A DNA stretch of 18,337 bases from Thermovirgaceae bacterium (GCA_046542505.1 JBKHBH010000036.1:1-18337); one strand, 5' to 3'; shown: positions 2,624-18,181, counted from the first letter of the stretch. Made by a program: numbers and translations. The notes: generated from the sequence alone by a model not told the origin.

Positions 2624-4282
2624 TTATGCCCCCGTCGAGATTCGGACCACCTGGGTGACGGCCTCTTTCAGGAGGACGGGGTACGTCTCGACCGAGTAGG
2701 GCAGGTGGATTCGCTCCGTGTTCTTGTGGGCATCCTTCCCGAAAGGGCCGAGGTTCAAAACCGGGATGTCCAGCCTGAGCAGATCCTCTTCAGGGAAACG
2801 GTATAGCGTGCCCCAGCCAGGAAGGTTCTCGCCTACGGTGCGGATTTCGTCGGCGTCCCCCTCGAAACCGCAGTAGCTGAGGTCCGAAACCCCCTCGAAA
2901 AGGGTACGGATCTTCAACTCGATGCCGTGAGCGGTTTTTGCTTTTTCGCGGACCTTTTCAGCCGCATGCCTCATGGCCGACTCCTTTTCGTTCCGGCCCT
3001 GATTCGTCCGGTGAGGATACCAGGGGGGCAGGAACCCGACGATACCAAAAGGCGGCTGAAGGCCGCAGGCGTCGGCGAGATGCTCGATGGCTGCGAAGGC
3101 GCGTTCCCTTTCGTCGGCATCGGGGGGGCTGGAGGCGTGGGCCTGCTCGAGGACGGTCCGGATTTCATCTTTTAACAAGGTTTCGGCCTTTTGTACAAGC
3201 TCTCCGTAAGTATAGACCTTTGGCGTCCAGGAGGAGCAGGCGGCCCCGGAACCATTCCTCTCCATGTATCCCCGTGCGAAACGGTTGTACTGTCCTATGG
3301 CGCTCTTTTGGGCCTCCATGGCCAGTTCTTTCAGCTCCGCGAGGATTTGACCGGGCATTTTCCGGGCCGTCAAATAGCTGTAGAATGCCACGGCGCGGGT
3401 CATGATTGTGGCGGAATATTCCCGTCTCAGGTCGTGCTGGCGCATACAGCCGTAGGGCGGGTAGGCCGTTCCTTCCAGCATGTCCGCGTAATGCGGGTTC
3501 CCGTCAAGCATGATATTGAGATGGGAGACGATGGGCGCGGCGCAAAGCCCCTCGTAGTATTCTCCAACGTGGGTTTCCTTGCCTGCGAAGTAGAAGAAGG
3601 GATTGATCTTGCCGATGCTCCCAAGATAGATAGAGGGTCCGGCTTCTGCTCCCCCGGCGAAGGTGGGCTCGGTATTGATGCAGGAAAGGAACCGAAGTCC
3701 TTCCGTTTCCTGGAGTTCCGCCAGGACGGGAACGGCCGCCAGCATGCCTCCGGAATTGTTCTCCTCGTCGCATACGTAAAGCACGGCCAGGTTCGCGCCG
3801 GGATCGAACTCGCCACGGGAGGCTTCCGCGAGAATGGAAAGGCCAGTTGCCACACCGGTCTTCATGTCGGCTATCCCGCGCCCGAAGATCCATTCACCGG
3901 ACTCGAGGTCCCTTCTGGCTTCGGGGTGTATATCTGTTCCGGCAATTCTCCTGGTGTATTCCTCAGCGTCGAAAGCGATTTCCTTGAGGCTCCCGCAGGC
4001 ATCGGTGCCCACCACGTCCATGTGCCCCATCAAAAGGACCGTGTCTGCAGTTTGTTTCTTTGCCCTGACAACGGCAAATACGATATGCCGCTCGTAACGG
4101 TCGCCTTCCATTGGGATAATCCTGACATCCCCGGGGTTTTCCTGAAAATAGGGCAGTTCCCTGAGGGTATCGAAGACGAATCGGGCGATCCGGTTTTCTC
4201 CGTCTTTCGAGGGGGATACGCTGGGGATTTGTACGAGATCCAGCATGAGCCGGTACAGGTGTTCTTTCTGAGTGCTGATCAT
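2624..4282 (-). CDS. M20/M25/M40 metallohydrolase, RocB (arginine utilization protein)-like
   Basis: Metal-binding motifs GHMDVV, GRGIADMK, DEE and TEP, plus GKETHVGE and C-terminal GPFGKDAHKNTER; ~552 aa. Start placed at ATG 4282 after AAAGGAGG. Confidence 0.85.
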   Translation of the reverse strand: MISTQKEHLYRLMLDLVQIPSVSPSKDGENRIARFVFDTLRELPYFQENPGDVRIIPMEGDRYERHIVFAVVRAKKQTADTVLLMGHMDVVGTDACGSLKEIAFDAEEYTRRIAGTDIHPEARRDLESGEWIFGRGIADMKTGVATGLSILAEASRGEFDPGANLAVLYVCDEENNSGGMLAAVPVLAELQETEGLRFLSCINTEPTFAGGAEAGPSIYLGSIGKINPFFYFAGKETHVGEYYEGLCAAPIVSHLNIMLDGNPHYADMLEGTAYPPYGCMRQHDLRREYSATIMTRAVAFYSYLTARKMPGQILAELKELAMEAQKSAIGQYNRFARGYMERNGSGAACSSWTPKVYTYGELVQKAETLLKDEIRTVLEQAHASSPPDADERERAFAAIEHLADACGLQPPFGIVGFLPPWYPHRTNQGRNEKESAMRHAAEKVREKAKTAHGIELKIRTLFEGVSDLSYCGFEGDADEIRTVGENLPGWGTLYRFPEEDLLRLDIPVLNLGPFGKDAHKNTERIHLPYSVETYPVLLKEAVTQVVRISTGA

Positions 4283-4457
4283 CTGTGGTCCTCCTTTTCT
4301 TTCCTCTGGAGCTGAGGATGTCTCGGCGGATAATATTCTATCGGGTCCGCCGGGAAAGATCCTGTGTGCCATTTTACAGCTCAAAAGAAGCCTCTGCTAC
4401 CGTGGCTTCAGGATACATTGCATTCAGCGGGGAGATAAATCCTGCCGAAGGACGTTC

Positions 4458-4486: not shown

Positions 4487-4537
4487 TGAAACTACGTGAA
4501 TCAACGGCGAAACCGCAAATTTTCGGGAGGGAACACG

Positions 4538-5683
4538 ATGGATATCAAGACCTTTGCCGTAGAGGAATGGATGAACACACACGAAATGGAAGCGGTCCAC
4601 AATATCGCGGAAACATGCGTGGATTCTCTGACAGTGGAGGAATTGCTGGAACTTTCCGGCGAAAAGGAGAAGATCCTCGAAAAGATTCTCGCCACGCGCC
4701 TTACATATGGTTTCATTCCGGGCACACCCAGGCTCCGGGAATTGCTGACGGAACTTTACGGGAATGCGAAGCCGGAGAACATCCTCGTCACAAGCGGCGG
4801 GATCTCGGCGAATTTCCTGGCCTTGTATACCCTGGTGCGGCCAGGTGACAGGGTCGTCTGCGTGGCTCCCACGTACCAGCAGCTTTATAGCGTTCCCGAA
4901 TCTTTCGGAGCCGACGTGAAACTGTTGCCCCTTCGCCCCGAGAAGGGTTTTTTGCCCGATCCGAAGGAGCTGGAGCGACTTGCCTCAAACGGACTCGATC
5001 TGGTCGTTCTCAACAACCCGAACAACCCCACGGGAGCCCTTATGGACGAAAAGCACCTGAAGGAGATCGTCGGCATCGCAAAAAAGAAGGGTGCATGGAT
5101 TCTGTGCGACGAAGCCTATAGGGGCCTTGAGCATGACCCCGAAGACAGCGTCCCGTCCGTGGTTGATCTTTATGAAAAGGCCGTTGCCACGGGCAGCATG
5201 TCAAAGGTCTTTTCCCTGGCCGGGCTTCGCCTCGGGTGGGTTTCGGGACCCGAGGAGTTTATCACCGACTGCTTTCATCACCGTGACTACACGACCATCA
5301 GCTGTGGACGCATCGACGAGGTACTGGCCGTAACGGCCCTGGAGAAACGGAAAAAGTTGCTTGAAAGGAACCGGAAGATTGTCACGGAAAGCGTGGCCAT
5401 TGTTGACGAGTGGGTGAAAAGGGAGGAACGGGTCGATTGGGTCAAGCCTCGCGCAGGTACCACGGCCTTCCTCTCCTACGATTACGACATCCCTTCAGAA
5501 GAATTCTGCATCGGTCTTTTCCGAATGAACGGGACGTTTCTGGTCCCAGGGAAATGTTTTGACAGGGAGTACTGGCTCCGGATCGGCTACGCCTACGGCA
5601 AAGAGACACTCAAAAAGGGGCTTGACGGGCTTTCGGCCTGGCTCAGGGAACTCGAAAAGCAGGGAGTTGGTCGACGGCCCTAG
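4538..5683 (+). CDS. PLP-dependent aminotransferase class I/II
   Basis: NNPNNPTG, CDEAY and GSMSKVFSLAGLRLGW (PLP lysine). Start at ATG 4538 after GGGAGG. Confidence 0.92.
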   Translation: MDIKTFAVEEWMNTHEMEAVHNIAETCVDSLTVEELLELSGEKEKILEKILATRLTYGFIPGTPRLRELLTELYGNAKPENILVTSGGISANFLALYTLVRPGDRVVCVAPTYQQLYSVPESFGADVKLLPLRPEKGFLPDPKELERLASNGLDLVVLNNPNNPTGALMDEKHLKEIVGIAKKKGAWILCDEAYRGLEHDPEDSVPSVVDLYEKAVATGSMSKVFSLAGLRLGWVSGPEEFITDCFHHRDYTTISCGRIDEVLAVTALEKRKKLLERNRKIVTESVAIVDEWVKREERVDWVKPRAGTTAFLSYDYDIPSEEFCIGLFRMNGTFLVPGKCFDREYWLRIGYAYGKETLKKGLDGLSAWLRELEKQGVGRRP

Positions 5684-5697
5684 CGACCAGCTTCCTG

Positions 5698-6615
5698 TCA
5701 GGACTTCGGTGCGAATGAAATGATAAGAAAGACGGCGGCGATGATAGTTCCCGCCGCAAAAAGCGTCTGAACCGTCAAGGGGTCCCCCGCGACGAGCCAC
5801 CCGAGGAAAACGGCTCCAACGGGGTTTACGTAGGCATAGGTGGCGACACGTGAGGGGCGGCAGTTTCGCATGAGGATCATGTAACAGACGAATCCTACCA
5901 GTGATCCGAAAACGACAAGGTAGGCCCATGCCAGAATGGAAGCCGTGCTGACAGCGGACGGGTTGAACCGAAAAACTTCCCCGGTGAGGACCGAGGCGAC
6001 GGTCAGAAGCGCTCCCCCGGCAAGCATTTGGAGAGAGACGGCAAGAAGCGGCGAGGACGGAGTGTGAGCATGCCGCGAGTAAAGAGACCCCGTAGCCCAG
6101 GAAACGGCGGCGAAAAGGACAATAGCGATCCCGAAGGGGTGAAAAGCTTCAGAGGCGCTTGTTTTCGTGAAACCGATGAGAAGGGCGACACCCGAAAAGC
6201 CCAGGATGACTCCTGCCGCTTCCGCAAGTGTGGGCCGGGCCGCCCGAAAAAGCAGCCAGTTCAAAACCACGATCCAGAGTGGGACTGTTGCCACGAGAAG
6301 AGCGGCGAGGCTTGACGGTATGAACTGTTCACCCCAAACGACATTCCCGTTGCCAAGCATGACGACCAGTCCACCGGTAATGAAGGCGTCCCTCCATTGG
6401 AGGCGGGACGTCTTCGGTGCGTCGGGTCGCGTGGCCGCAAAGATATAAAGCAGCCCGCCCGCCGCAATGAACCTGAGGCCTGATGAAAGATAGGGGGGGA
6501 TGGTCTCCACCATGTAAGCGATGGCCAGGTAGGTTGTGCTCCATGTGGCGTACAGCCCCAGAAACATGAGAAAAATCAGTCCCCGGGAGAGTCCCGGGGT
6601 TTTATCCTTTTTCAT
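5698..6615 (-). CDS. EamA/DMT family transporter (YedA-like)
   Basis: About 10 hydrophobic segments; YATWSTTYLAI, GLRFIAAG, YLVVFGSLVGF, YAYVNPVGAVFLG. Its ATG overlaps the upstream TGA (ATGA at 6612-6615). Confidence 0.9.
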   Translation of the reverse strand: MKKDKTPGLSRGLIFLMFLGLYATWSTTYLAIAYMVETIPPYLSSGLRFIAAGGLLYIFAATRPDAPKTSRLQWRDAFITGGLVVMLGNGNVVWGEQFIPSSLAALLVATVPLWIVVLNWLLFRAARPTLAEAAGVILGFSGVALLIGFTKTSASEAFHPFGIAIVLFAAVSWATGSLYSRHAHTPSSPLLAVSLQMLAGGALLTVASVLTGEVFRFNPSAVSTASILAWAYLVVFGSLVGFVCYMILMRNCRPSRVATYAYVNPVGAVFLGWLVAGDPLTVQTLFAAGTIIAAVFLIISFAPKS

Positions 6616-7508
6616 AATGACAGTCCTTCCGTATTTCCGTCAGGTCTTGCCACGCTTCGCCCAAAATGTAACTCGAGGAGTGCAGGGTCTTCCATGTGCC
6701 CTTCGTAAACGAACTCGGCAGGGCCGGTGAGTGTTACCGGAAGAGTTTGGAGCCCCCTGTCGTTGGGGAAGCTCACGATATTGACCCCGCCGGGATTCTT
6801 TACAGAGACCGGCGGTTTGACCAGTCCTTCAAGCCAGGCGGCTACAGCAGAGGCCGCCGAGCCTGTGCCGCAGGAAAGGGTGAAATCTTCCACACCCCGC
6901 TCGAAAGTTTGAACATGAAGAGACTCGGCTGTTCCGGTGATGAAATTCACGTTCGTTCCTTCGGGAAACTTTTCGGTGTCGGCCTGGATGGTCTCCGCCA
7001 ACCGCCTGAGGCCCGGACGGTCTTTTCCTTCGATGCATTTCGGGAAAACAACCGTGTGAGGAACGCCCAGGGTGAGATGTGTATATTGGATTTTTTCGTC
7101 GGAGAAAGAAAAAATTTCCTTCCTTCGGACCGAAGGCAGATCAACGGTACCCATGTCGAGGGTGACGGATTCCCTTGTGACACTTGCCCGTACCGGTCCC
7201 GCCAGGGTCGAAAAGGTCATTTCCGAGGGGGCGATACATTTTTTCGAAGTGTATCTCGCGATGCACCGGGCCCCGTTCCCGCACATTTCGGCCTCGGTGC
7301 CGTCGCTGTTGAAAAGGCGTATGGTGAAATCCGCTTCTCCACTTACTTCTACGGCGATCAGCCCGTCGGCTCCGACGGATCGCCCCCGCGGGCACAGCAC
7401 GACAGCCAGGCGGGAGAGTTCCCGCTTTGAGAAAGGGCATTCCCTGTTATCAATCACGATGAAATCGTTTCCGTTTCCCTGCATTTTCGTGAATTCGAAG
7501 GCGGGCAT
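6612..7508 (-). CDS. dapF: Diaminopimelate epimerase (DapF) family protein, intact Cys/Cys dyad
   Basis: FTKMQGNGNDF, GADG, FNSDG.EAEMCGNGARC (Cys76), GVPH, NVNF, ERGV..TLSCGTG (Cys213). Confidence 0.82.
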   Translation of the reverse strand: MPAFEFTKMQGNGNDFIVIDNRECPFSKRELSRLAVVLCPRGRSVGADGLIAVEVSGEADFTIRLFNSDGTEAEMCGNGARCIARYTSKKCIAPSEMTFSTLAGPVRASVTRESVTLDMGTVDLPSVRRKEIFSFSDEKIQYTHLTLGVPHTVVFPKCIEGKDRPGLRRLAETIQADTEKFPEGTNVNFITGTAESLHVQTFERGVEDFTLSCGTGSAASAVAAWLEGLVKPPVSVKNPGGVNIVSFPNDRGLQTLPVTLTGPAEFVYEGHMEDPALLELHFGRSVARPDGNTEGLSL

Positions 7509-7524
7509 TGGAACGCGTTCCTTC

Positions 7525-8370
7525 CTACAGTCCGTCGGGATACAAGGAGCCTTCTGCGATAAAGGCCGTCACGCCCTCGAGCCTGATCCTGAGGATCGAA
7601 GGCGACGTCTCCTCCATGATGATCGTGTTGGTGCCTCCCGGGTTGTAGACGTCCACCGGTGAATCACACCAGCCGTTGAGCCATGCCGCCACGGCTGCGG
7701 CAATGGATCCGCTCCCGCAGGAAAGGGTGAAATCGTCGACGCCACGCTCGTAGGTGTAGACTTCAAGCGCTCCGTGCCCCAGGATCTTGAGGAAATTGAC
7801 GTTGGTTCCATCCGGAAACCGGGAGGTGTCTTTCTGAAGCGCCCGGGCGAAGGGCGCCAGGGTTTCCAAAGGCCTCCAGTCGGATTTTTCCAGAAAAACC
7901 ACTGTGTGGGGTGCCGCCTCGTTCCCGTGCCCGAGTTCCATGTGGTTGACGGGGAACATTTCCCCCATGTGGCTGAATGATTCATCCAGCACCACCAGGG
8001 ACGTGTCGATGGTCCCGGTGTCCAGGGTAACCCTGGCCCCTTCGACTATGGCGTCAAGAGCGCCCCCTATGGTGTCGAAACGCATGTTTTTGGGAGCGAT
8101 CCCCTTCTCATAAGCGTACCGTGCGATACATCGGGCACCGTTTCCGGACATGGCGCTTTCCGATCCGTCTCGGTTGTAAAAGCGCATGGCGAAGTGAGAA
8201 CCTTCCTCCGAAGGCCTCCCCACCGTCATCAATCCGTCGGCCCCGAGGGACAGGCGTCTCCGGCAAGCCTTGACGGCTGTTTCCCTGATTTTTACATCCT
8301 CATACAGGCCTTCCTGATTGTCGATGATGATGAAATCGTTTCCATTTCCCTGCATCTTGGCGAAGTTCAT
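7525..8370 (-). CDS. DapF paralog with the first catalytic Cys replaced by Ser
   Basis: FAKMQGNGNDF, GADG, YNRDGSESAMSGNGARC (Ser75, codon TCC at 8146-8148), NVNF, ERGV..TLSCGSG (Cys218). GGAGG RBS upstream. Confidence 0.88.
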   Translation of the reverse strand: MNFAKMQGNGNDFIIIDNQEGLYEDVKIRETAVKACRRRLSLGADGLMTVGRPSEEGSHFAMRFYNRDGSESAMSGNGARCIARYAYEKGIAPKNMRFDTIGGALDAIVEGARVTLDTGTIDTSLVVLDESFSHMGEMFPVNHMELGHGNEAAPHTVVFLEKSDWRPLETLAPFARALQKDTSRFPDGTNVNFLKILGHGALEVYTYERGVDDFTLSCGSGSIAAAVAAWLNGWCDSPVDVYNPGGTNTIIMEETSPSILRIRLEGVTAFIAEGSLYPDGL

Positions 8371-8429
8371 GAATGGGCCTCCGAATATGTCACAAAGTAG
8401 AAAACCGGCAAGGCAACCGCCCGCCTGTC

Positions 8430-8460
8430 ATTATAGGGCAAAAAATCCGGGGAGTTGCAA
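8430..8460 (-). promoter_or_regulatory. Possible internal promoter for the dapF-like/dapF/EamA genes
   Basis: TTGCAA-N19-TATAAT on the minus strand; the spacer is longer than optimal. Confidence 0.35.
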
Positions 8461-8466
8461 GGGGAG

Positions 8467-9423
8467 TTACCAGTTTCCCGCAAAGACCGTTCCCTCGGAG
8501 GTTATTTCCACCAGGCTGTGGGAGAAAACAGCCCGCAGGACGTGGTCCTTTTCTTTTTCGATGGTGACACGGGTTGTGTCCGGGCCTCCCAGCACAGGCT
8601 CTCCGCCTGTTTCGAGAACAACATCGATGCGGTTTTCGTCCGCCAGGCCCCGGGTTTTGCCTTCGCCTGAAAGAAGCAGGGCCAGAGCGAGAGCCACGCT
8701 TCCCGTTCCACAGGCTGGTTCGATGTGGCCCGTGGTGATGCTGTGGGGATAGAGGGCACGCAAATGGCCTGACCCGGAACTCAGACCGTCATACAGCGAA
8801 AAGTGAAGGCTGCCGCTGCCTGTGACACGATGGAATGCGCGTTGCAGCCCGACCAGGACATCCCTGGCTTTAGGATTCATTCTGTCGAAGTCCGCGTCAG
8901 GATGCTTCTTTCGGACTTTTTCCGCGTCAAGGACGAGGTACATGCCTGACTGAAAGGCCGGTATCCCGTCAAGGCTGACGGGCTTCGTGCCGATCTTTTG
9001 GAGAAGCCGGGCGAATCCGGCAAGGTCGCTGCCGGTGATGAAGGTTCCTCCAGCCGTTTGTCCGATTTCAAGCGGGGTTTCTCCCGATTCCGTCTCGAGA
9101 ATAATGGTGCCCCCGGTCCCGGCGGTTTCCAGTCCGAAACGTTCAGCCCAGTTGGTTGTGGCGAAAGCCAGTCCTGCTACCTGGGTGAACCCGCCGCAGG
9201 CCGGGATGTAATCCTTGTTGGTGATATCGGCAATAAGGGCCTTCACATGGCCGGGTTCTTGAGACGGGAAGAGCACTCCTGCCTGGTGCCCCCAAAGTCT
9301 GAGAGGCCCCAGCGCCTCCAGGGCGGCCTCGAGAATCTTCTGCCTGCTGCCTGAGACCTGCCGTCCATCGAGCAGAAGTATCAGGTTTCCCCCCATGTGT
9401 CCCTTCAGATAATCCAGCTTCAC
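8467..9423 (-). CDS. Divergent DapF/proline-racemase-fold protein (putative PLP-independent racemase/epimerase)
   Basis: GTG start after GAGGAGGT. N-terminal K..MGGN motif and two Cys-Gly motifs (IPACGG, Cys76; EPACGTGS, Cys238) at positions matching a two-Cys racemase dyad. Lacks the DapF-specific GNDF and ERG motifs. Confidence 0.7.
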   Translation of the reverse strand: MKLDYLKGHMGGNLILLLDGRQVSGSRQKILEAALEALGPLRLWGHQAGVLFPSQEPGHVKALIADITNKDYIPACGGFTQVAGLAFATTNWAERFGLETAGTGGTIILETESGETPLEIGQTAGGTFITGSDLAGFARLLQKIGTKPVSLDGIPAFQSGMYLVLDAEKVRKKHPDADFDRMNPKARDVLVGLQRAFHRVTGSGSLHFSLYDGLSSGSGHLRALYPHSITTGHIEPACGTGSVALALALLLSGEGKTRGLADENRIDVVLETGGEPVLGGPDTTRVTIEKEKDHVLRAVFSHSLVEITSEGTVFAGNW

Positions 9424-14873: not shown

Positions 14874-15785
14874 TTAACTGTCGTTTCGTGCTGCAGATGC
14901 TGTGCGTACGCCCCAGAATTCGGCGTCGAGGCTTCCTGAGTAAGCGCGAAAATCTTCTCCGGGGTCTTTCATCTTGACGTAGAGTTCCGGAGAGCCCTCT
15001 TTCGGAATGGCGATAATCCATGTGGCCACAGTCCGGGATTTCCGCGAGTCGCTTCCGGTTCTGAAAACGCTGTTGTCGGTGCCGGCGTTTCGGTCTTCGC
15101 TGAATGTGACGAAATCTTCCATTGCGAGTTGTCCCTGCCGGTCCGAGAGAAGACTCGTTATCCGCTCGTAGCGGGTTTTGCTGCTTTTCGAAGCGCGGTC
15201 GTTGAACCACTTGAGCTCGGAAGAAACGTAGTGGTTCGTCTGGGCGAGGAACCCGTTGTCGATGACCCTGACGGCCGTCTTGCCGTCGGGCGCCCCTTCG
15301 AAGACGGCAACCTTCCGGGCGTCGGCAACCATATAATACGATGAGCGGGTGAACCGGTCTTTCTGGGCGATAACTTCGTCAACGGTGGCGTAGGATGTGA
15401 GAATTTCGTTGGACGAAATAGGATCTCCGCCGTCAGCGCTTCGATCGTTTTTCGGGATGACCGAAGCAGTAGCCGTAACGACGGCCAGACCCTTTTCGTT
15501 GATTCCGCCCTTGAGCCCGGGGCTGTCTCCATCAAAGGCAAAAAGCCCAAGATATGAATATCCCTCACGAGACCTGACCTGCTGCAGGGCATGGCTTTGC
15601 CCCGGTTTCCAGTCCCTGTTTTTGGCCAGGATGGTGTATCCTTCGGCTGTCCCGGAACCCGTTGCCGCCCACAATGTGCAGGCTTCGATGGGCGCGGCCC
15701 ACATGAGGAAGACAAAAAGAAGGATGGCCGCAAGGACTCTTTTTGCTCCGATACGTTCAATAAGTTTTCTTCTGACTGGCTTCAT
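14874..15785 (-). CDS. Secreted C45-like Ntn-hydrolase (acyl-CoA:6-APA acyltransferase/carcinine hydrolase family)
   Basis: Basic plus hydrophobic signal peptide ending PIEA, then CTLW (Cys36, N-terminal nucleophile), AKNRDW, GINEKGL, QTNHY, SSKTRY. Start placed at ATG 15785 (AGGAG at 15796-15800); the longer ORF runs into the riboswitch. Confidence 0.82.
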   Translation of the reverse strand: MKPVRRKLIERIGAKRVLAAILLFVFLMWAAPIEACTLWAATGSGTAEGYTILAKNRDWKPGQSHALQQVRSREGYSYLGLFAFDGDSPGLKGGINEKGLAVVTATASVIPKNDRSADGGDPISSNEILTSYATVDEVIAQKDRFTRSSYYMVADARKVAVFEGAPDGKTAVRVIDNGFLAQTNHYVSSELKWFNDRASKSSKTRYERITSLLSDRQGQLAMEDFVTFSEDRNAGTDNSVFRTGSDSRKSRTVATWIIAIPKEGSPELYVKMKDPGEDFRAYSGSLDAEFWGVRTASAARNDS

Positions 15786-15881
15786 GATTCTGACGCTCCT
15801 GTTTTTCGAAACGGGACGCGTCCGGGTCTTTCGCAAACCTGCTGCCTCTGGAATCTTTGGGGAATCTTCCTGGAAGGCGTG

Positions 15882-15910
15882 AAAAAGCCTTCGGGAATTT
15901 TCCCGAAGGC
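15882..15910 (-). terminator. Intrinsic terminator (expression platform) of the downstream riboswitch
   Basis: Minus strand GCCTTCGGGAA-AA-TTCCCGAAGGC-TTTTTC. Confidence 0.85.
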
Positions 15911-15920
15911 AAAGAAACGG

Positions 15921-16012
15921 TGCCTTCGGCAGCTCGGCGGTCATGGCCTTTTTCAGGCTTTAGACCCGTAGCTTTGCGTCATCGCCTTTCAGCGATTTTG
16001 CCGTTTCGGGCA
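15921..16012 (-). ncRNA. c-di-GMP-I (GEMM) riboswitch aptamer, downstream copy
   Basis: Minus strand TGCCCGAAACGGCAAAATCGCT-GAAA-GGCGATGACGCAAAGCTACGGGTCTAAAGCCTGAAAAAGGCCATGACCGCCGAGCTGCCGAAGGCA. It has GGCAAA, GNRA-capped P2, GACGCAAAGC, the CTAA/ATG tetraloop receptor and a 3' GCCG. Confidence 0.93.
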
Positions 16013-16105: not shown

Positions 16106-16193
16106 CTTCGGTGGCCCGGCGATCATTGCCTTTTCAGGCTTTAGACCCGTAGCTTTGCGCCATCGCCTTTCGACGATTTTGCCCTTTCGGATG
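16106..16193 (-). ncRNA. c-di-GMP-I (GEMM) riboswitch aptamer, upstream copy
   Basis: Minus strand CATCCGAAAGGGCAAAATCGTC-GAAA-GGCGATGGCGCAAAGCTACGGGTCTAAAGCCTGAAAAGGCAATGATCGCCGGGCCACCGAAG; the same GEMM hallmarks as the downstream copy. Confidence 0.93.
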
Positions 16194-16238
16194 GTGATGC
16201 TGTACTTTACACTGCGAAACACTCTTGGTTGCTTACAT

Positions 16239-16266
16239 ACCTTACCATGTTTTTTGTCTTTGTCAA
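16239..16266 (-). promoter_or_regulatory. Putative sigma70 promoter driving the tandem-riboswitch leader
   Basis: TTGACA-N16-TAAGGT with TG at the extended -10 position; the predicted TSS lies about 40 nt before the first aptamer. Confidence 0.6.
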
Positions 16267-16387
16267 GATAGCTGGATGTAAGCAATTCTCGTGCTTTCCT
16301 CCCCCTTTCGCTGCCTGTACATGGGAAGGCCTTTGTCGCTATACTCCAGGTGTGATTCAAAATTCCAATGTCTATGGAGGCAACATC

Positions 16388-18181
16388 ATGCAGCGTTTCT
16401 GGCTGAAAAAGACGCCGTTTTGTGTCGGAATCATTTTGGCTGCTCTTTTCATTCTGGCGGATTTTTCAAGTGGAGTTTCCTCAGCTTTTACGCCAGCCGA
16501 ATGGATAAAGACAGTTGGTCTTGATGTGGTCTTGACCCGGGAGGAAAAGGAAAGTCTTTTGGATTACGCGTCTTCGAAGCTGTCTTCCAAAGAAGCGACG
16601 GGAAGGTCCCTGAAAGGTCTCCCTTCTGATGACCAAAAGCGTGTTCTTTTCGTCAGTGCAAGCGACGGAAAAAGTCCTGCGGTTATTGGCATCGGAGAAG
16701 GAAACGGTTACCGGGAAGCCCTCGATGCAGCCATTTCGAAGCTGCCTAAAAAAACCGAAAACCCTTTGTGGATCAAGATCGACATAATCGACGGCTTGCA
16801 ATTCAGATGCAAGGAGCTGCTGACCGAACCGGTTGCGATACAAAAAGGTATCGAAGGAATCATTTTCCCAGGATGCCCTTCCTGTGTTTTTTTGCCTGAG
16901 ACGGTAGTGGTAAAAAAAATCATCGGTGAAGACGGTTTCCTGAGGGCGGAAAACTTTGTCAGCGAGGGTGGGCCTCAGGCGCGGGAATTCTTCAAGCACT
17001 TGCTGGATGTTCACTCGGCGGACCGATTGGATTTCCGGACGACTTCCTTCATAAAGGACGAGACCGGTTTTCGGGACGTGTCTCGAGGGAAGCAACAGGG
17101 AACTTTTTCTTCAGATGAATTGCTGGCGGCTTCCGGAAGCGCCGCGGGTTATCTCGCGAGGATGGTGGACGCGTCGGGTCGGTTTGTGTATCGATATGAT
17201 CCGCTCGAAGATAAAAAACTTGGAGGGTATAACATCCTGCGTCATGCCGGGACGCTTTTTTCCATGCTCGAATATTGCCAGATCGAAAAAGATAGCCGGA
17301 CGCTCGAATCGGCACGGCGAGCCTTGAGGTATCTTTTGGGGCAGATAGAGACAATACGGAGCAACGGGGTCGAAATGGCCTGCGTCGTAGAGGACGGCGA
17401 GGTCAAACTCGGTGGTAACGGGCTCGCAGCCCTTGCGATCGCCAAATACATCGAGGTGACAGGCGACAGGAAAAATCTTCCCGTTTTGCGGAAACTGTGT
17501 GAGTGGATGGTGCACGTCCAGGATTCGTCCGGGCGGTTTATTGTCCACAAACAGGATTTTCCCGATGGCCGGGTTTCTGATTTTCGGTCGTCCTATTATC
17601 CGGGCGAGGCGATTTTCGGCCTGATGAGAACCTTCGAAATCGATAGCGATGAGAGATGGCTCCAGGCGGCCGATGCGGCGGCAAGATACCTGATCACCGT
17701 TCGGGACAGGGGACTCCCCGATGTCCAGTTACCTCATGACCATTGGCTGCTCTATGGATTGAATGAGCTTTACCATCAGGAGAAGGGCCGGCTTTTCGCA
17801 AATCACGCATTCAGGATCGCGCGAGCCATCATTGGCGCACAAAACCAGAAGATGGCTTCAGTGGACTGGAATGGCGGATTCGGGTTCAACCCGCGTTCCA
17901 CACCGGCGGCGACACGTATGGAAGGAATGGGGGCGGCATACCGAATTGCCCTCGCAGTCAATGACGAAGAGATGAAAAAACGCATCCTCGAATCCCTTCG
18001 GTTGGGAAACGGGTTCCTTCTGCGAACCCTGATCGATCCCTCATGGGCCATGTATATGAAGAGTCCTTCCAGGGCCGTGGGCGGGGTCCGCAAAAGCCAG
18101 AACGATTTCGAAGTCCGTATCGACTACGTGCAACACAGTCTTTCGGCCTTTCTTTCCATGCATTCCATTCTTGAAGAATAA
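16388..18181 (+). CDS. Exported protein of unknown function; possible AMMECR1-like N-terminal region and C-terminal (alpha/alpha) toroid domain
   Basis: ATG 16388 after GGAGG; signal-peptide-like N-terminus. Helical repeats with GRFVY, YNILRHAG, KLGGNGLAALA, QDSSGRF, YYPGEAIFGL, DHWL and RIDYVQH motifs; ~597 aa. The domain calls are by resemblance only. Confidence 0.75.
   Translation: MQRFWLKKTPFCVGIILAALFILADFSSGVSSAFTPAEWIKTVGLDVVLTREEKESLLDYASSKLSSKEATGRSLKGLPSDDQKRVLFVSASDGKSPAVIGIGEGNGYREALDAAISKLPKKTENPLWIKIDIIDGLQFRCKELLTEPVAIQKGIEGIIFPGCPSCVFLPETVVVKKIIGEDGFLRAENFVSEGGPQAREFFKHLLDVHSADRLDFRTTSFIKDETGFRDVSRGKQQGTFSSDELLAASGSAAGYLARMVDASGRFVYRYDPLEDKKLGGYNILRHAGTLFSMLEYCQIEKDSRTLESARRALRYLLGQIETIRSNGVEMACVVEDGEVKLGGNGLAALAIAKYIEVTGDRKNLPVLRKLCEWMVHVQDSSGRFIVHKQDFPDGRVSDFRSSYYPGEAIFGLMRTFEIDSDERWLQAADAAARYLITVRDRGLPDVQLPHDHWLLYGLNELYHQEKGRLFANHAFRIARAIIGAQNQKMASVDWNGGFGFNPRSTPAATRMEGMGAAYRIALAVNDEEMKKRILESLRLGNGFLLRTLIDPSWAMYMKSPSRAVGGVRKSQNDFEVRIDYVQHSLSAFLSMHSILEE

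Follow-up and report, generated by a model that had tools for sequence, protein, structure and literature searches.

A tandem pair of diaminopimelate epimerase genes, one with serine at the first catalytic position, beside a racemase-like gene in a Thermovirgaceae bacterium

Two adjacent dapF genes in a run of four

Here we report an analysis of a 3.7-kb run of genes from a Thermovirgaceae bacterium that includes two adjacent genes for diaminopimelate (DAP) epimerase, DapF_SC and DapF_CC, the first of which encodes serine in place of one of the enzyme's two catalytic cysteines. The run lies within a stretch of 18,337 nucleotides, hereafter the window, which is contig C81 of a metagenome-assembled genome of 2.14 Mb and 93.5% completeness; the host is described as a heat-loving Synergistota bacterium, and the closest relatives of the proteins encoded on the contig are labelled Thermovirgaceae or Synergistota. 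Four open reading frames (ORFs) follow each other head to tail on the minus strand, as a sequence-only reading of the window had described them: X318 (8467-9423; 318 aa), a racemase-like protein with the DapF/proline-racemase fold, whose GTG start is preceded by AGGAGG 7 nt upstream; DapF_SC (7525-8370; 281 aa); DapF_CC (6612-7508; 298 aa); and a YedA-like transporter of the EamA/DMT family (5698-6615; 305 aa), hereafter EamA. The two DapF proteins were recognised with the profile TIGR00652, the fold of X318 with AlphaFold2 and Foldseek, and EamA with PF00892. The intergenic gaps measure 96 nt between X318 and DapF_SC, 16 nt between DapF_SC and DapF_CC and -4 nt between DapF_CC and EamA, and a GGAGG-like ribosome-binding site stands before each of the four starts.

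Both DapF proteins score above the curated cut-off of TIGR00652 (114.65 bits), DapF_CC with 215.3 bits over profile positions 2-268 of 270 and DapF_SC with 183.8 bits, and both also match PF01678. They match solved DapF structures (EC 5.1.1.7; 9mro from Anabaena and 8qzy from P. aeruginosa) at E-values of 1e-31 to 2.5e-33 and keep the motifs GNGNDF, FN-DG, GNG-RC, TNVNF, ERG and SCG(T/S)GS. A profile search for a further dapF elsewhere in the genome returned none, the two window genes being its sole DapF matches; most sampled Synergistota genomes give a single DapF hit. The 'DapF2' of GapMind, considered as a possible counterpart, proved to be a different, Alr2-type protein.

Active site, ancestry and constraint of the pair

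Alignment to the solved DapFs places Cys of DapF_CC (motif EMCGNG) and Ser of DapF_SC (AMSGNG) opposite the first catalytic cysteine, C75 of 8qzy and 9mro, and the second (C219, 8qzy numbering) is retained by both copies, in the motifs SCGTGS and SCGSGS respectively. DapF_CC, which is of the Synergistota type, therefore has both catalytic cysteines, whereas DapF_SC is the Ser/Cys paralogue that it had been taken for, and because of this Ser we have not filed it as an ordinary DapF. The residues listed as binding DAP are, in Anabaena numbering, Asn13, Asn66, Asn164, Asn197, Glu215, Arg216 and Thr226 (PMC12039745). Both proteins retain equivalents of Asn13, Asn66, Asn197, Glu215 and Arg216 as well as the Gly-Asn backbone donors. 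At Thr226, in the Gly-Thr/Ser backbone donor, Thr is kept in DapF_CC and Ser is found in DapF_SC, while the distal-carboxylate residue Asn164 corresponds to Val in DapF_CC and Ala in DapF_SC, leaving DapF_CC with six of the seven listed residues.

The Val is shared by all 108 Cys/Cys proteins among the best 120 database hits to DapF_SC and by six of the seven non-Thermovirgaceae Synergistota DapFs that were fetched. Two Val-bearing Synergistota DapFs (L115 and L116) sit 14 and 24 nt from lysA, and coordinate comparison places DapF no more than 10 kb from lysA in 13 sampled Synergistota genomes. Because the Val form is common in the phylum and includes copies beside lysA, we regard it as a normal DapF, and elsewhere in Synergistota it is probably a bona fide lysine-pathway enzyme. 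The earlier description of DapF_CC as canonical thus stands as regards its cysteines and its profile score, but has to be qualified at the distal-carboxylate site.

The Ser/Cys and the Cys/Cys proteins are told apart by only five columns of the alignment. One is the catalytic position itself (Cys to Ser), one the Asn164 site (Val to Ala) and one the position three residues ahead of the catalytic residue (Gly to Ser), and the other two are conservative changes; the first two named lie in the active site. Such a pattern appears to fit an enzyme that still works, its active site subtly retuned, and neither a pseudogene nor a paralogue that has taken on a new substrate. The DAP-recognising residues kept in both proteins likewise point to DAP rather than to lanthionine, histidine or other substrates.

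The family was sampled in 19 Thermovirgaceae genomes, nine of them at least 90% complete. Tandem DapF pairs occur in the genus of the present genome (g1), where they were found in this genome and in four of five others, the fifth being 73% complete, and in both genomes of a second genus (g5); the remaining Thermovirgaceae genera with DapF have a single copy. The 22 distinct Thermovirgaceae DapF ORFs comprise seven Ser/Cys and 15 Cys/Cys forms, each of the seven family orthologues of DapF_SC having Ser as its first catalytic residue, and the best 120 database hits to DapF_SC divide into 12 Ser/Cys proteins, all at 62% identity or more, and 108 Cys/Cys proteins. The Ser/Cys proteins form a single clade, supported at 100 by the Shimodaira-Hasegawa-like approximate likelihood-ratio test in a tree of 65 rows and at 100/100 in one of 29 rows, and this clade is nested within the Thermovirgaceae DapFs in both. 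The Ser thus appears to have arisen within the Thermovirgaceae DapF clade, and the two genes are probably tandem paralogues of a Synergistota-type DAP epimerase that arose within the family. An approximately unbiased test, which bears on the order of the duplication events, did not reject the tandem copies as one clade (p = 0.11). The Ser codon is TCC in six of the seven genes and TCG in one (G010), the Cys codon is TGC in the three that were checked, and the codon history would accordingly be one transversion from TGC followed by a synonymous change.

Selection was assessed from the ratio of nonsynonymous to synonymous substitution rates (dN/dS) in four within-genus comparisons (for X318, against L004 only); across genera, against L014, dS was saturated and gave no ratio. 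For DapF_SC, dN/dS is 0.08-0.11 and identity is 81-86% within the genus and 62% across genera, and for DapF_CC the corresponding values are 0.12-0.19, 67-78% and 53%; by identity DapF_SC is the more conserved of the two in five of five comparisons. With its Ser fixed, its DAP-binding residues retained and a slower evolution than that of DapF_CC, DapF_SC is not decaying.

DapF-like sequence also occurs in a quite different setting in the phylum. Four other Synergistota genomes (G090, at L122 28-4143; G078, G073 and G054) have ORFs of 1350-1390 aa that end in a stretch of ~280 residues matching DapF at 177-202 bits; the L122 domain has Gly at the first catalytic position and differs at several binding residues, and domains of this type may be fused, non-epimerase forms of DapF.

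DAP supply and the proposed roles of the two DapF proteins

Pfam and NCBIfam scans found no lysA, dapA or dapB in the window, in agreement with the sequence-only reading. Nor was lysA found in this genome or in any of the 19 Thermovirgaceae genomes, nine of nine at 90% completeness or more included; in a sample of 81 genomes from the phylum Synergistota it scored over the cut-off in 61. The present genome encodes asd (389 bits, over the cut-off) and, outside the window, a dapB that barely passes (128 bits), and its MurE contains DNPR, which we take to be the mark of a meso-DAP-specific enzyme. Going by gene content, a route to meso-DAP for peptidoglycan is plausible, if unproven, and lysine synthesis through LysA does not appear plausible. 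With no detectable LysA, the DapF pair would therefore serve the LL-DAP/meso-DAP pool for peptidoglycan and not lysine synthesis, a respect in which Thermovirgaceae would differ from bacteria in which DapF also has a role in lysine supply.

Cofactor-independent racemases are textbook two-thiol enzymes. Departures from this pattern were described in DapF itself only in 2025, when Ser/Ser proteins were reported to be active on DAP, one being paired in Anabaena with a Cys/Cys copy; the suggested gain is insensitivity to thiol oxidation, and with it a part in coping with oxidative stress (Lamer et al., J Mol Biol 437:169375, 2025, via PMC13728532). DapF monomers inactivated by a Cys-Cys disulfide, which is seen in solved DapFs, have also been described (PMC13728532). 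DapF_SC resembles these proteins in its fold and in standing beside a Cys/Cys DapF in one genome. It differs from them in having Ser at the first residue only, the second remaining Cys, in belonging to a clade nested among Thermovirgaceae Cys/Cys DapFs, and in the adjacency of its gene to that of its partner. A natural hydroxyl/thiol pair is known from the E. coli aspartate/glutamate racemase EcL-DER, a Thr/Cys enzyme that is cofactor-independent and works in one direction (PMC8142540); EcL-DER, however, has the unrelated fold of the Asp/Glu racemase superfamily, acts on another substrate and uses Thr and not Ser, and it serves here as an analogy only. Our literature search, which turned up the Ser/Ser DapFs, HisR, PddB and the bifunctional DapF of Chlamydia, found no natural Ser/Cys DapF, although hybrids may be included in Lamer et al. 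(2025); it found nothing relevant on Cys-to-Ser DapF mutants and nothing specific on DAP in Synergistetes.

We favour, at a probability of about one half, a reading in which DapF_CC is the housekeeping DapF, DapF_SC is a disulfide-proof and/or direction-biased DAP epimerase isozyme, and X318 is a separate unit. Beyond the observed anatomy, conservation, selection and distribution, we infer the substrate, direction, redox role and transporter cargo as follows. The 3.7-kb run would consist of two units placed side by side, DapF_SC-DapF_CC (with EamA in g1) and X318. DapF_CC would act as a conventional reversible two-thiol epimerase that supplies meso-DAP to MurE. DapF_SC would still bind DAP, since it retains the recognition residues, and is predicted to be a working enzyme under strong constraint in which Ser makes an inactivating Cys-Cys disulfide impossible. 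With a hydroxyl on one face it would probably be slower or biased in direction, as the comparison with EcL-DER suggests, and by what is reportedly known from work on the H. influenzae enzyme the Ser would be the residue that serves the L-centre. EamA, in g1 only, would be a membrane carrier for a DAP isomer or some related amino acid.

A bolder form of this proposal, which we put forward tentatively and as the less probable version, would make DapF_SC the first natural Ser/Cys DapF-type hybrid, a DAP epimerase that is proof against disulfide formation and, through its asymmetry, runs one way or with a strong directional bias, and with which a lysine-auxotrophic anaerobe balances LL- and meso-DAP beside the reversible DapF_CC; EamA would then move the surplus or scavenged isomer, and X318 would represent a new racemase family with some amino acid as its substrate.

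Several observations weigh against the favoured reading. The Cys-to-Ser mutation is said to 'hinder catalysis' in these enzymes and has been used to trap them for crystallography (PMC12039745), so that DapF_SC could have next to no epimerase activity. A role in oxidative stress is not obvious either, the organisms being anaerobes that come from mats. In the pathway that would feed the pair, the dapA-like gene reaches 176 bits, under its cut-off of 206, and the DapL-like aminotransferase 395 bits, under a strict cut-off of 593. Three of the 19 Thermovirgaceae genomes (93%, 96% and 73% complete) show no DapF, and the enzyme may thus be dispensable in the family. The 29-row maximum-likelihood tree joins the Ser/Cys clade to the single-copy DapFs (98/90) and leaves the tandem Cys/Cys copies outside, in which case it may be the Cys/Cys copy that has diverged. 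X318 adjoins DapF in six Thermovirgaceae genera, which could reflect a functional link between them. Among the genomes without DapF, G003 (96% complete) still carries a gene of the X318 family; the other of the two more complete ones is G001 (93%).

It is also conceivable, though we think it unlikely, that DapF_SC works with one base and carries out a different chemistry on a substrate resembling DAP, either as an irreversible meso-to-LL or LL-to-meso converter in DAP salvage or catabolism or, by analogy with the Cys/Thr enzymes among the proline-racemase family that dehydrate hydroxyproline, as an eliminase or dehydratase. The irreversibility of the Thr/Cys EcL-DER (PMC8142540) would fit such an enzyme, as would the trans-3-hydroxyproline dehydratase 6r76 among the fold relatives of X318, the lack of a detected LysA in Thermovirgaceae and the description of these bacteria as peptide and amino-acid users, with 17-18 aminotransferase hits. 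Against it, no more than the five columns discriminate and the pocket is otherwise unchanged, and no catabolic partner is apparent. The synteny of an aminotransferase and an M20 hydrolase with the locus could be counted in its favour, but synteny within a family is weak evidence and the nearest solved relatives of the aminotransferase are either of function not known or cyclodehydratases.

Both of these neighbours were considered as partners in DAP metabolism and rejected. The aminotransferase-fold gene, a pyridoxal-phosphate-dependent protein of the PRK07324 type (4496-5683, plus strand; NF005593 at 487.7 bits, cut-off 476), converges on the operon, is syntenic across Thermovirgaceae and adjoins DapF in L004, L008, L010, L014 and G008; its best solved relative is 3op7 (function not known), followed by GntC (8fft), with 4m2j also among them. 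The M20-like protein (2624-4384, minus strand; 586 aa) is syntenic in g5, has no solved relative by sequence and scores weakly with DapE/ArgE-type models, at ~51 bits and far under their cut-offs.

We regard as improbable the idea that DapF_SC, with little or no catalytic activity, is a subunit that regulates or stabilises DapF_CC in a heterodimer, or a moonlighting protein in the manner of E. coli DapF with RppH. The two genes are 16 nt apart and always together, DapF works as a dimer of which half-oxidised forms are known and E. coli DapF binds RppH (both PMC13728532), and the Cys-to-Ser mutation hinders catalysis (PMC12039745), all of which would suit it. Full retention of the substrate-binding residues, under stronger constraint than in DapF_CC, would however be unusual for a purely structural subunit.

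X318 and the limits of the probable operon

X318 has no match in Pfam or NCBIfam, and its sequence finds nothing in the PDB beyond a chance-level hit (E 0.98). Its AlphaFold2 model (predicted local distance difference test score 94.4, predicted template-modelling score 0.93) takes the DapF/proline-racemase fold, with Foldseek template-modelling (TM) scores of 0.57-0.69 at 12-19% identity to DapF, PhzF, ProR, LigU and HisR, none of which is clearly the closest. Foldseek returned 106 PDB chains at E<=0.001, all of those listed being from this superfamily, 6r76 included. The model has two domains with a conserved Cys starting each central helix, as members of the superfamily do, and in an alignment of 32 relatives these residues, Cys76 and Cys238, do not vary. 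The family has conserved motifs of its own (GHMGGN, ACGGFTQV, FPH, EPACGTGS and FSHS) and is rare: a search of 1.84 billion proteins gave 86 representatives at E<=1e-3.

The nearest named relatives of X318 are the proline racemases and hydroxyproline epimerases of PF05544 together with HisR/CntK. A profile of the X318 family finds HisR (9cr1) as its best PDB match at E 1.6e-4, and an atlas look-up returned the family's own unnamed clusters and then leads to CntK and ProR at 0.87-0.88. X318 shares with these proteins the pseudo-symmetric two-domain fold and a Cys at the N-terminus of each central helix; it differs from them in its distant TM scores and identities, its own motifs and its failure to match any family model. 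PF05544 itself does not match X318 at E<=0.1, and nine of the 32 relatives match it weakly, at best with E 1.2e-5. As a candidate for the proline racemase of the cell X318 was rejected: the genome has a canonical PF05544 gene at 355.6 bits, and no PrdA scored over the cut-off.

The sequence-only reading had joined the three DapF-fold enzymes and EamA in one possible undescribed pathway for the interconversion and transport of non-standard amino-acid stereoisomers, such as DAP, lanthionine and D-amino acids, and this we find very doubtful. Co-orientation and the tight gaps speak for it, as do the position of X318 upstream of DapF in the six genera, an X318-DapF_SC gap of only ~44 nt in g5, and the fact that DapF-annotated proteins can have other substrates, as HisR does (PMC11602996). 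However, X318 is absent from G010, G012 and G014, that is, from three of the five genomes of the genus that keep DapF_SC-DapF_CC-EamA, and one of these, G010, is a closed genome on one contig, 99% complete, without an X318 homologue anywhere. In all three a gene for a CoA-disulfide reductase directly adjoins DapF_SC; within g1, X318 is inserted between the two only in the present genome, where this CoA-disulfide-reductase/rhodanese gene is divergent in the upstream flank, and in G013. Furthermore, DapF lies within the fetched flanks of X318 in only seven of 80 loci, all from this lineage, and in none of the 73 others, and in the single-copy genera a GAF/PAS gene stands between X318 and DapF. 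The entire 18 kb is syntenic with L014 and G008 of g5, and we therefore put the adjacency of X318 and DapF down to synteny by inheritance; inside one family, adjacency counts for little as evidence. The DAP-recognition residues kept in both DapFs and the confinement of EamA to one genus argue in the same direction.

The slot held by DapF_SC in g1 and g5 is occupied in single-DapF genera by a 382-aa protein with GAF and PAS domains (L009 9060-10208; likewise in L008 and L010-L012).

The spacer of 96 nt between X318 and DapF_SC contains a promoter-like element (8425-8443, minus strand) composed of a T-run, GCCC, TATAAT and GACAG. In an alignment these 19 nt are identical in the window, in L004 (G013) and in G010, in which X318 is absent and the sequence upstream of the element is unrelated. 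The element is probably an independent promoter of DapF_SC-DapF_CC(-EamA), and since it is conserved with or without X318, and X318 is missing in congeners, we read DapF_SC-DapF_CC-EamA as the operon and X318 as its neighbour, probably with a transcription unit of its own. A generic consensus promoter scan found nothing for the operon (one plus-strand site in all, against 1.3 expected), and the nearest -35-like hexamer is 19 nt away. A terminator-like hairpin with a T-run also lies between this element and the DapF_SC start (8425-8407, minus strand), kept in G013 and not in G010; it could be a leader structure or a chance occurrence. No tRNA was found in the window, and Rfam gave no match at the operon.

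The transporter gene matches PF00892 with two repeats (119.8 bits), and its best NCBIfam match is NF008432, YedA, at 217.4 bits, below the equivalog cut-off of 270. It thus shares the two EamA repeats of the YedA/EamA DMT amino-acid exporters but differs from them in falling short of the YedA model and in a linkage to DapF that was seen only in g1. There it follows DapF_CC in all five genomes that have the locus (this genome, G010, G012, G013 and G014), with a dN/dS of 0.04-0.08 and 78-89% identity within the genus. It was not found in L014, and in g5 and the single-copy genera it is missing from the locus, where the convergent aminotransferase comes directly after DapF. The ATGA overlap of its start with the DapF_CC stop had been read as coupling the two genes; the overlap is present in this genome and only here, congener DapF_CC genes ending 47-67 nt before EamA, and it results from 17 extra residues at the C-terminus of DapF_CC, which no other genome shares (the ORFs of congeners encode 279-285 aa). 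The cluster is conserved, a point named beforehand as one on which the single-pathway idea could fail; X318 is missing from three of the congeners, and EamA accompanies the pair in g1 only.

Judged from its structural model and its distribution, X318 appears to be a separate two-Cys racemase-like protein of a rare unnamed family, dispensable to the DapF pair. Outside this lineage, genes of the family have as neighbours a threonine-synthase-like pyridoxal-phosphate enzyme (27 loci), a SerA-type dehydrogenase (22), an FTR-like/Zn-ribbon protein (21), a glutaredoxin (20), an extracytoplasmic-function sigma factor (19), a saccharopine-dehydrogenase-like protein directly upstream (9) and a protein of the ADI/DDAH fold (7). 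The present genome contains two more paralogues, at 45% and 36% identity to X318, on contig C49 (L124 5378-10915), in a run of a saccharopine-dehydrogenase-like gene, X318b (with a 4-nt overlap), an ADI/DDAH-fold protein, a transporter of the major facilitator superfamily, and X318c. Upstream of this run lie a LarA-like gene, a GntR regulator and an enolase, and downstream a trp operon.

That one or two of the three DapF-fold genes are decaying duplicates, a concern raised by their redundancy where one DapF is normally enough and most sampled Synergistota genomes show a single hit, has next to nothing to recommend it: every frame is intact, dN/dS over the three is 0.08-0.19 at dS 0.6-2.1 (for X318, 0.15, with 84% identity to its L004 counterpart and 56% across genera), Ser is fixed in both genera, at 62% identity between them, its codon showing a single synonymous change, and orthologues come from many independent assemblies.

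Elsewhere in the window, two tandem c-di-GMP-I riboswitch aptamers at 15925-16012 and 16107-16193 on the minus strand (scoring 87.5 and 82.6 bits against a gathering score of 35) lie upstream of a gene for a C45-family autoproteolytic acyltransferase/hydrolase (14874-15944, minus strand). The proximal aptamer overlaps the longest-ORF start of this gene, whose real start is therefore probably further downstream. A 650-aa ORF (16229-18181, plus strand) has no Pfam or NCBIfam match and is syntenic in g5.

Current models name both genes of the pair diaminopimelate epimerase, in a family without a detected lysA, and the known logic of the pathway is unchanged until activity is measured. X318, of a family with no Pfam model and three copies in this genome, is a separate target for function discovery. 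DapF_SC and DapF_CC offer a ready-made pair for asking how a hydroxyl replaces a thiolate at a carbon acid, and a test case for whether such asymmetry may give directionality or redox insurance.

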